NCBI GenBank assembly: GCA_001785675.1
Contig: MFUJ01000016.1
Span: 149-64,148, forward strand
Reading direction: 5' to 3'
DNA: 64,000 bases
Origin: Candidatus Nomurabacteria bacterium RIFCSPHIGHO2_12_FULL_37_29
Lineage (GTDB): Bacteria > Patescibacteriota > Minisyncoccia > Phycocordibacterales > UBA9973
Positions 53,586 through 54,347 of this stretch are shown piece by piece. The notes below the pieces were generated by a model that saw only the letters and a program-made list of their open reading frames with translations, was not told where the DNA came from and searched no databases. Position 1 is the stretch's first letter; every line of letters starts with the position of its first letter. The position numbers were made by a program, and so were the translations under genes.

Positions 53586-54347
53586 TTACTTCTTACTCCA
53601 AACAATCACGTCCCCGACCTTGACGCCCAACTTCTTTGCGCCCAGATCGCGAGCTTGCCCGAGTTCGTAGAGGCCAAAGGAACTTCCTGGAAAAAGAACC
53701 CATCGACCGGTTGCTCGCGACATCATCCGAGGGTCGTACACCGCTTCAATGTGAATTCCGTTGATGCTCACATCGAACATGTTTCCCGTTTCTGCCGGCT
53801 TCAGATCCCCAACGAACTTCATCATTCCGAAGTTGTCGATGTGGACGATGGTACCTTTTTCCAAATTCATCCTTACGATGCTGTTTGGATCAATGGGATC
53901 ACCAAGTTCCGATAGTGAAACCCCTCGCGCCGCCGCCGAGGCTAGTTTCGCCGTAGTGTACTTCCCTGCGAAAGATATGAACCCTCCGCTGTTATGCCGA
54001 GCAAGGTCGTAGAGCTCAGCACAACCAAAATCACGAGTGAGCCAATCAAAGCTTCCCATGTTCCGGCCGATGAATACGATGTTTCGCCCCTGAGTTCTGC
54101 CAATAACATTCATCGGCCTTGTCTTTTCGGCGTTTATCGTAGTCATCAGGACACTGTTCTCGGGGTAGGAATCAGCCATCAATCGAACAGCGAAGTTCGT
54201 GTTGATAACCGAAAACTCTGGAGAGATCGGAATGATGGGTGGAACCACTACGTCAGGCATGTTCTCCACTTCTCGTATTAACACCGCGTACAGTTCATGT
54301 GCCGCGATATCAACACAATCCGTGATATTCACAAGATACTTCTTCAT
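53586..54347 (-). CDS. SAM hydrolase/halogenase-family protein (DUF62; fluorinase FlA / chlorinase SalL family)
   Basis: The C-terminal half KLASAAARGVSLSELGDPIDPNSIVRMNLEKG...HIDNFGMMKFVGDL...WVLFPGSSFGLYELG parallels fluorinase [24 protein letters not shown]...IDHPFGNVWTNI...IAIYLNSRGYLSIA. The start is set at MKKYLV (ATG 54347), which has AAGGAGG 6 nt upstream. High GC, unlike its neighbours. Confidence 0.6.
   Translation of the reverse strand: MKKYLVNITDCVDIAAHELYAVLIREVENMPDVVVPPIIPISPEFSVINTNFAVRLMADSYPENSVLMTTINAEKTRPMNVIGRTQGRNIVFIGRNMGSFDWLTRDFGCAELYDLARHNSGGFISFAGKYTTAKLASAAARGVSLSELGDPIDPNSIVRMNLEKGTIVHIDNFGMMKFVGDLKPAETGNMFDVSINGIHIEAVYDPRMMSRATGRWVLFPGSSFGLYELGQARDLGAKKLGVKVGDVIVWSKK

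Follow-up and report, generated by a model that had tools for sequence, protein, structure and literature searches.

A divergent DUF62-fold protein and its TauD-family oxygenase partner in Patescibacteria: fold, active-site residues and gene neighbourhoods

The DNA considered here, referred to below as the window, is a stretch of 64,000 nucleotides from contig MFUJ01000016.1 of Candidatus Nomurabacteria bacterium RIFCSPHIGHO2_12_FULL_37_29 (Patescibacteriota). An earlier note on it had pointed to a gene for a DUF62 protein, i.e., a member of the superfamily of S-adenosylmethionine (SAM) hydrolases, fluorinases and chlorinases, next to a TauD-like dioxygenase. The open reading frame (ORF), at 53586-54347 on the minus strand, has an ATG start and encodes a 253-aa protein beginning MKKYLVNITDCVD, hereafter named DUF62L, in which a two-domain DUF62 fold is predicted and the motifs ITDCxD, HIDNFG and GSSFG can be found, without the Asp and His of the hydrolases. 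It belongs to the DUF62 superfamily by fold and lies outside the hydrolase and halogenase families, since the features that define these families were tested for and are not present. The gene has its own signals, namely a Shine-Dalgarno sequence AAGGAGG (54353..54359, minus strand; read directly in the sequence, 6 nt upstream of the ATG at 54347) and, directly past the stop codon, a GC-rich terminator-like hairpin at 53526..53569 on the minus strand (GGGCCGGAG...CTTCGGCCC, followed by a T-tract). This hairpin is kept, with changes in its stem, at the orthologous loci L051 and L053. The databases contain a sequence identical to DUF62L, entered as a hypothetical protein, from a metagenome-assembled genome (MAG) of Candidatus Nomurabacteria. 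Directly upstream and on the same strand lies the gene of a 277-aa Fe(II)/2-oxoglutarate (2OG) dioxygenase of the TauD/TfdA family (54505..55338).

Superfamily membership is borne out at the level of profile and fold, while the statement that the protein aligns well with fluorinase and chlorinases proves too strong by sequence. In single-sequence searches, DUF62L scores 23.0 bits with Pfam PF01887 (SAM_HAT_N), below the gathering cut-off of 26.3, and has no Pfam match to PF20257 (SAM_HAT_C). The NCBIfam (R)-SAM hydrolase equivalog NF058624 gives 22.6 bits against a cut-off of 350, and a phmmer search of the PDB retrieves SalL only at E=0.05 and does not match FlA. Such searches are too weak to decide, and profiles and fold are needed. 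Most relatives of DUF62L carry a precomputed PF01887 match. When an alignment of 39 family members is used as a profile against the PDB, the best match is Thermotoga 2zbu (E=3e-15, full length), and comparison of the family alignment with FlA, SalL, 2zbu and MJ1651 by hhalign yields a probability of 99.6% (E=4e-23, 248 columns); the FlA and SalL sequences used are 100% identical to 1rqp and 2q6i. With the AlphaFold2 model of DUF62L (pLDDT 94.1, pTM 0.90), the top 40 Foldseek matches are all DUF62 structures, including hydrolases, chlorinases and fluorinases (TM 0.69-0.80, 15-21% identity), and the next match has E=0.12. As judged from the profiles and the predicted model, membership of the DUF62 fold is secure, the family being roughly equidistant from all characterised DUF62 classes.

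About 100 close relatives were found. Among 1.84 billion clusters at 50% identity, only 112 representatives, mostly from Patescibacteria, were retrieved at E<=1e-3, and the family is therefore small and separate. Of the columns in the 39-sequence alignment, with members down to 46% identity, 43 are invariant and 31 nearly so. Compared with its nearest orthologues, the window gene shows a nonsynonymous divergence (dN) of 0.10-0.15 and a saturated synonymous divergence (dS). DUF62L is under strong purifying selection and, given the low dN with saturated dS, is therefore not a decaying copy. Within the literature library that was searched, no paper was found on this subfamily, on a DUF62-TauD pairing or on the Kitasatospora cluster described below.

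For the active site, the profile alignment was mapped onto FlA numbering and residues were counted over the 39 sequences. The roles given to the residues (FlA D16, D21 and S269) are those of the established structural literature on FlA and SalL. Several ligands are kept, i.e., D10 (FlA D16, ligand of the ribose 2'/3'-OH; 37 D and 2 E), D13 (FlA D21, ligand of the methionine end; 38 D and 1 N) and S222 (FlA S269, also at the methionine end; 39/39). The aromatic residues F45 (FlA W50), F126 (FlA F156, SalL W129) and F173 (FlA F213) are also retained, as are K129 and D171 (FlA D210), and G128, which corresponds to FlA S158 and SalL G131, is Gly in 39/39. The unusual N-terminal motif NITDCVD is real and a hallmark of the family: the TDFGxxD loop is two residues shorter in DUF62L and reads ITDCxD, with T9 and C11 invariant and D10 and D13 at least 95% conserved. 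The family also has invariant residues of its own, namely C11, E18, R55, K75, R77, W102, D106, H169, N172, K177, R207, W216, S223, E228 and R233.

A 2023 review (PMC10491745) describes the His-Arg-Asp triad as strictly conserved among DUF62 hydrolases and missing in halogenases, with OH-, F- and Cl- as the only acceptors known for adenosyl transfer from SAM. At the position of the triad Asp, DUF62L has N72 (35 N, 3 G and 1 S across the family; Asp in 0/39), and at that of the His it has A127 (23 A, 9 G, 5 S, 1 E and 1 V; His in 0/39). Only the Arg is kept, as the invariant R77, one position off the aligned Arg. With Asp and His replaced in 39/39, DUF62L is therefore not a canonical SAM hydrolase, and the label that the earlier note had favoured is not supported. 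The reaction attached to that label also needs correction, as SAM hydrolases produce adenosine and methionine (PMC10491745) and not 5'-deoxyadenosine. DUF62 hydrolases of known structure (PH0463, 1wu8/2wr8; MJ1651, 2f4n/22uy; Thermotoga, 2zbu; TTHA0338, 2cw5) and StDUF62 have the same fold as DUF62L (TM 0.75-0.80, 15-20% identity) and share with it the (T/S)D ribose motif, F-x-G-(K/R), xIDxFG and the C-terminal GS(S)xG-LE(L/I). Besides the triad and the shortened loop, DUF62L differs from them in the Asp of the GRD motif (Y130; Y/L/S/F/Q across the family) and in the Asn of the FGN motif (FlA N215), which is M175 (M/L/S/I/T across the family).

The chlorinase SalL (2q6i) and the soil chlorinases ClA1 and ClA2 (7ccg, 7xto) resemble DUF62L in the missing triad, in the Gly at SalL G131 and in overall fold (TM 0.77-0.80, 20% identity). 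However, SalL Tyr70 is not kept, its position being T/I/V across the family, and DUF62L has its own invariant basic residues K75, K177, R207 and R233. The fluorinase FlA (1rqp) shares the fold, and its D16, D21, F156, D210, F213 and S269 have identical or conservative counterparts in DUF62L, but S158 is replaced by Gly, R270 by Phe and T80 by Lys (K75; K/R/Q across the family). In the profile alignment, a 21-residue gap opposite FlA ~93-113 indicates that the fluorinase-specific loop is missing. Of the SAM- and halide-binding residues to which the earlier note had drawn attention, the SAM ligands D10, D13 and S222 are kept and G128 agrees with SalL, and SalL Y70, FlA T80 and FlA S158 are changed. 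From its residues, DUF62L is not recognisable as a fluorinase or chlorinase, and it lacks the halide pockets of FlA and SalL. The absence of the triad, common to DUF62L and the halogenases, is a shared negative trait and no proof of membership.

The TauD-family gene upstream of DUF62L matches PF02668 with 102 bits against a cut-off of 27 and has a native-like GC content at third codon positions (GC3) of 0.23. In 16 partner sequences, the facial triad H111-x-D113...H243 and the 2OG-binding Arg (R254/R258) are invariant, and the oxygenase, like DUF62L, has several invariant Arg residues. Among named models, the trimethyllysine, gamma-butyrobetaine and TmpA hydroxylases come closest, and among structures PvcB (3eat) and TmpA (6npb). 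These onium hydroxylases and PvcB have PF02668, the HxD...H triad and the 2OG-binding Arg in common with the partner, which nevertheless scores far below the family cut-offs (52.6 vs 268) and has PDB E-values of 4e-5 or worse. An assignment as taurine dioxygenase was rejected (NF007104, 17.3 bits against a cut-off of 313). A TauD gene can be found within 6 kb of DUF62L in 18 of the 19 assessable loci of the clade to which the window gene belongs (clade A, below), and in 0 of ~100 loci of the two other clades. Its placement in clade A is varied: it may lie directly upstream or downstream, in convergent or divergent orientation, or with a kinase, a major facilitator superfamily (MFS) transporter or several genes between. 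When 16 loci are compared pairwise (120 pairs), the identities of DUF62L correlate with those of TauD (Spearman 0.81). The TauD-like neighbour is a true partner, co-inherited with DUF62L across phyla, and the functional tie to a 2OG dioxygenase at which the earlier note had hinted is thus strongly supported.

For the wider neighbourhoods, 126 non-redundant loci (designated by L numbers) were gathered from genomes and metagenomes and their ORFs clustered. A neighbour-joining tree of DUF62L rooted on canonical enzymes has three clades, with the window gene in clade A. Recurrent neighbours in this clade are GTP cyclohydrolase II (GCHII), which is either joined to a HAD phosphatase as a fusion or encoded next to one, an S66 peptidase (MccF/LD-carboxypeptidase family) and a small P-loop kinase, and a bona fide type-2 isoleucyl-tRNA synthetase (IleRS) can be found beside the DUF62L-TauD cassette in one lineage of Patescibacteria. 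The gene order is DUF62L-TauD-IleRS-GCHII(+HAD)-S66 in L005/L006 and DUF62L-TauD-S66 in L050. In L051, which has the nearest relative of the window gene, TauD and DUF62L are separated by genes for a NUDIX-HAD fusion, an MFS transporter and a histidine phosphatase. Members from actinobacteria, with 50-55% identity, belong to clade A as well and occur in cluster-like settings (L007, L008, L047, L048 and L049). In the Kitasatospora loci L008 and L048, these comprise TauD, ATP-grasp, carbamoyltransferase, GDSL, HAD, GCHII, DUF62L, a convergent alpha/beta hydrolase, a condensation domain, IleRS and a nonribosomal peptide synthetase (NRPS). Kutzneria L007 has the order TauD-MFS-DUF62L, L047 is a cluster-like locus of an Actinomycetota MAG, and L049 carries two DUF62L copies, polyketide synthase (PKS) genes and IleRS fragments. 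The two copies in L049 (10001-11566) are tandem DUF62-like genes of 265 and 252 aa, the second very divergent; they sit between TauD and GDSL/carbamoyltransferase, with PKS modules and IleRS-like gene fragments on the flanks.

IleRS adjoins the cassette in L010-13, L054-56, L060 and L048, and two actinobacterial clusters carry IleRS or fragments of it. Overall the association counts 10 loci in approximately four independent settings. The IleRS label had been placed on 17 loci and holds for 10, the others being ValRS, LeuRS or a histidine phosphatase. What the Patescibacteria share with the actinobacterial clusters is limited to DUF62L, TauD, GCHII, HAD, a hydrolase and IleRS; the scaffold genes for NRPS, carbamoyltransferase and ATP-grasp enzymes are not in the shared set.

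The other two clades keep different company. In clade B, DUF62L is paired with a P-loop kinase and an MmgE/PrpD protein. In clade C, it is associated either with a kinase resembling phosphoenolpyruvate (PEP) synthase and a serine hydrolase or with an S51 peptidase, and downstream can be found either the c10/c13 family beside TyrRS/TrpRS or a protein with a weak likeness to HisRS. A conserved trio is present in over 50 loci of Patescibacteria (within L020-L046 and L063-L132; e.g., L021:302-3668 and L025:1-2648), with DUF62L last, preceded by a PEP-synthase/rifampicin-phosphotransferase-like kinase (PPDK_N and mobile domain) and a serine hydrolase with a GYSFSG nucleophile elbow and no Pfam match. 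The trio faces a c10 or c13 protein (190-260 aa), which is always co-oriented with TrpRS or TyrRS. The c10 and c13 proteins are mutually related (hhalign probability 85%). Their reading as TyrRS/TrpRS-like was not adopted, as there is one marginal PDB match (E=0.005) and hhalign against the TyrRS/TrpRS of the same locus gives no support. The arrangement with S51 peptidase, DUF62L and a facing 375-aa protein occurs in L027, L029, L031, L033, L034, L036, L044, L110, L113, L117-L119 and L122. The 375-aa protein has a weak likeness to HisRS motif 3 (Pfam E=1.4e-4, PDB E=0.03) and may be a paralogue of the aminoacyl-tRNA synthetase (aaRS) type without anticodon domain.

DUF62L can also be found fused to other domains. 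P0136 combines it with a C-terminal HAD phosphatase, P0108 and P0121 with an N-terminal nucleotidyltransferase-like domain (~250 aa), and in P0144 a DUF62-like domain is followed by a galactose-binding-like domain at the C-terminus. No similarity was seen between the nucleotidyltransferase domain of P0108 and the 251-aa protein encoded in a high-GC island elsewhere in the window (below), and the link between the two was dropped.

All reactions known for the DUF62 fold are SN2 transfers in which hydroxide, fluoride or chloride receives the 5'-adenosyl group of SAM. What has been observed for DUF62L and bears on its function is the fold, the residue pattern, the purifying selection, the synteny and the co-variation with the oxygenase. 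With middling confidence, DUF62L is taken to be a functional, constrained enzyme that would carry out a substitution at C5' with a nucleophile or leaving group other than activated water, as one step of a TauD-paired cassette. D10 would hold the ribose, D13 and S222 the amino-acid end of SAM, and F45, F126 and F173 would form the aromatic walls. The substrate of the SN2 reaction at C5' would be SAM or else a closely related adenosine with a 5' substituent. Given the many invariant Lys and Arg residues (K75, R77, K129, K177, R207 and R233), an anionic nucleophile or leaving group is probable. What enters or leaves the DUF62L step would be processed by the oxygenase, whose closest named relatives are hydroxylases of onium compounds, both enzymes making up a two-enzyme cassette. 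From the company of the cassette (GCHII-HAD or NUDIX-HAD, S66, kinases and IleRS, and the actinobacterial NRPS/PKS, carbamoyltransferase and ATP-grasp genes), it can be hypothesized that a small metabolite derived from a nucleoside is most likely either synthesized or broken down by the pathway. All that is said here of substrate, nucleophile, direction (synthesis or detoxification) and any link to aaRS is inferred from residues and gene context. By analogy, the IleRS association and the MccF-like peptidase make a theme of aminoacyl-adenylate mimics attractive, as a lead and not as a result.

Several explanations compete with this reading, the most familiar being a divergent SAM hydrolase, adenosine-forming and possibly (R)-SAM-specific, that relies on other water-activating residues. 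No other DUF62 activity comes near hydrolysis in frequency (PMC10491745; bioRxiv 10.1101/2025.08.29.672840), the fold and the ribose and methionine ligands are kept, the invariant R77 adjoins the triad-Arg position, and JGI annotation calls several members 'S-adenosylmethionine hydrolase'. Such an enzyme is nevertheless rather unlikely, given the missing triad Asp and His in every sequence, the NF058624 score far below its cut-off, the occurrence of the family inside NRPS/PKS-type clusters and, in clade A, the co-inheritance of a 2OG oxygenase, with which canonical hydrolases are not known to pair. A SAM-dependent, chlorinase-like halogenase yielding 5'-halo-5'-deoxyadenosine would fit the missing triad, as in FlA and SalL, the Gly at FlA S158/SalL G131 in all members and F126 at FlA F156/SalL W129. 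It is very unlikely all the same: SalL Tyr70 and FlA Thr80 are replaced, the fluorinase-specific loop is missing, and the many invariant cationic residues are unlike a desolvating halide pocket. Moreover, unlike at the SalL locus, the DUF62L neighbourhoods have no SalT-type phosphorylase, and no gene of the PNP family or of the FlB/SalT type can be found among the Pfam-annotated neighbours of 12 gene-called loci, nor a PNP-family gene among the recurrent clusters. Still less credit can be given to a degenerate, non-catalytic remnant or binding protein. The loss of two of three triad residues and of the FGN Asn and the Pfam score under the cut-off would suit it, but the 43 invariant and 31 nearly invariant columns, a dN/dS far below 1, an intact ORF with ribosome-binding site and terminator, and synteny kept across phyla all speak against decay.

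Closer in chemistry to the proposed C5' substitution, with which it overlaps, is an enzyme of detoxification or immunity that displaces the 5' substituent of a toxic adenosine analogue, e.g., an aminoacyl-adenylate mimic of the sulfamoyl or aminoacyl type, alongside the MccF-like S66 peptidase and other hydrolases and beside the target synthetase. The hydrolases and kinases that recur beside DUF62L (MccF-family S66, S51, alpha/beta hydrolases, rifampicin-phosphotransferase-like and P-loop kinases) and the nucleotidyltransferase fusion are consistent with it, as is the lack, in Patescibacteria, of the scaffold-building NRPS/carbamoyltransferase/ATP-grasp part of the actinobacterial clusters. 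Aminoacyl-nucleoside clusters provide a precedent for aaRS-like and hydrolase genes, namely AcmD/AcmF/AcmE of the ascamycin cluster (PMC12945691) and SbzA of the SB-203208 cluster (PMC13518217). Both clusters, like the cassette loci, have nucleoside-tailoring genes near an aaRS or aaRS-like gene and a hydrolase, but no DUF62 protein has been reported in either. The likeness is one of cluster logic only. The case for detoxification comes wholly from gene context. The DUF62 fold is not known from any resistance enzyme, and a resistance module would hardly be expected to share so large a set of genes. In addition, PADLOC gives no match to a defence system, and no copies were found on plasmids in PLSDB or on viral contigs in IMG/VR. 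Detoxification is accordingly considered unlikely, though not to the degree of halogenation.

A bolder version of the C5' substitution would see in DUF62L a third kind of adenosyl transfer, to a nucleophile other than water or halide (e.g., a sulfamate, carboxylate, phosphate or amine), or equivalently the displacement from C5' of a group of this sort. With the oxygenase as partner, it would assemble or degrade the 5'-modified adenosine core of an IleRS-directed aminoacyl-adenylate mimic, which actinobacteria would elaborate with NRPS, carbamoyltransferase and ATP-grasp enzymes and of which the ultra-small Patescibacteria would keep a minimal version as weapon or shield. This picture is improbable as a whole and is put forward as speculation. 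Several points weigh against the proposed C5' substitution and its pathway. The loss of the triad Asp and His is no proof of lost hydrolysis, as E18, D106, H169 or C11 could activate water, and the FGN Asn (FlA N215) is not kept, so that the base recognised might not be adenine. No IleRS, GCHII or S66 gene is present near the cassette within the window. Neighbourhood statistics count related genomes, and independent events are far fewer than loci. Finally, the aaRS genes near DUF62L in clade C (TyrRS, TrpRS, ValRS and LeuRS) are housekeeping-like, and their proximity may reflect inherited gene order.

With its high conservation, rebuilt active site and obligatory 2OG-oxygenase partner, this deep-branching DUF62 clade is a concrete candidate, amenable to cloning, for new chemistry on SAM or nucleosides. 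Patescibacteria are thought to be almost devoid of secondary metabolism. The presence of the same cassette in these bacteria and in IleRS-bearing actinobacterial clusters of the NRPS/PKS type points to a nucleoside metabolite as yet unexplored and to an exchange of genes by the two groups. For annotation, it can be noted that the database labels 'SAM hydrolase' and 'chlorinase/fluorinase' are being propagated to proteins without the defining residues.

The raised GC content of DUF62L, like the ORF itself, is confirmed. It amounts to 0.499, compared with 0.38 for the window, and the GC3 is 0.576, compared with 0.228 for the adjoining TauD gene and a mean of 0.34 (sd 0.11) over the 41 ORFs in the window with 150 aa or more. 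The step in GC coincides with the extent of the ORF and its terminator, the intergenic and coding segments on both flanks being at 0.31. DUF62L thus stands far above its neighbours but is not, as had been stated, a single high-GC gene: a second region of the window, a 5.3-kb island at 3266-8568, has equal GC. Across 41 loci, DUF62L follows the GC of its host (mean difference -0.01). The exceptions are the window gene and its nearest orthologues in L051/L052 (85% aa identity) and L053 (79%), with GC of 0.475-0.50 in genomes of 0.35-0.42; for the three orthologues alone, the gene has 0.475-0.489 and the flanks 0.35-0.42. The TauD genes beside the window gene and these orthologues are of native composition, and synonymous sites among the window gene, L051/L052 and L053 are saturated. 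The window, L051 and L053 share the downstream hairpin and differ in their neighbours. In the sister sequences L009, L013 and L054, the gene is at a similar GC, the host genomes being at 0.52-0.54.

Given the saturation of synonymous sites, the raised GC3 is therefore not the fresh footprint of one transfer into the window genome. The acquisition of a single gene, which the earlier note had considered likely, is right in so far as the anomaly is real, but orthologues in other low-GC genomes are equally raised, an outcome that the earlier note had itself named as counting against it. The idea is thus only partly supported. The anomaly is older than this genome, maintained, or renewed by repeated transfer from Patescibacteria of higher GC; donors, if any, would be other Patescibacteria. 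TauD gives the same grouping of window, L051 and L053, while DUF62L is relatively closer than TauD to the L011-13/L054 group, a discrepancy that leaves room for xenologous replacement. No plasmid copies (PLSDB), no homologues on viral contigs (IMG/VR) and no convincing flanking repeats at DUF62L were found.

On the other side of DUF62L, convergent with it, lies an alpha/beta hydrolase gene (Hydrolase_4; 52715..53476, plus strand). A non-orthologous alpha/beta hydrolase holds the same convergent position in Kitasatospora L008 and L048, and an association with DUF62L is possible. Further away and given for context are genes for an S51 peptidase (51154-51774) and a P-loop AAA_18 kinase (51777-52271), both on the plus strand. 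These two classes recur beside DUF62L in other clades, but the two window genes are not orthologous to those.

The second GC-rich region stands out at window 2617-8568, with GC of 0.50-0.55 compared with 0.33-0.36 in the flanks. Directly before the island genes, an S51 peptidase (2617-3234, plus strand) is 52-62% identical to the S51 peptidase preceding DUF62L in ~20 other Patescibacteria loci. On the minus strand, the island itself has genes for a protein of 251 aa without assigned function (3266-4021), an AlaRS-like protein in truncated form (4018-5130; tRNA-synt_2c, 145 bits), a protein of radical-SAM type in which the motif CxxxCxxC is present (5133-6356) and an aldo/keto reductase (6353-7093). 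On the plus strand there follows another truncated catalytic domain of AlaRS (7276-8568; 335 bits). Taken with the hydrolase, the pair of AlaRS-like genes is reminiscent of AcmD/AcmF/AcmE in the ascamycin cluster.

Upstream of the TauD gene, and starting ~144 nt from it, a copper-resistance block extends over window 55482-63714, with CsoR (55793-56125), a P-type ATPase (56130-58460), HMA/DsbD_2, cupredoxin-like and other genes. The block is strain-variable, as contig L004 matches window 43586-55482 at 99.98% identity and past this point runs into unrelated DNA with a release-factor gene. The class I aaRS enzymes of the window are LeuRS (11676-14084, plus strand) and ValRS (28521-30683, minus strand). 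Eight tRNA genes lie at 25.5-41.3 kb, in a region rich in translation genes, which matters when aaRS proximity is judged in related loci. A LOOT RNA (Rfam RF03000) is present at 45745-45863 on the plus strand, with 80.7 bits against a gathering score of 46.4.

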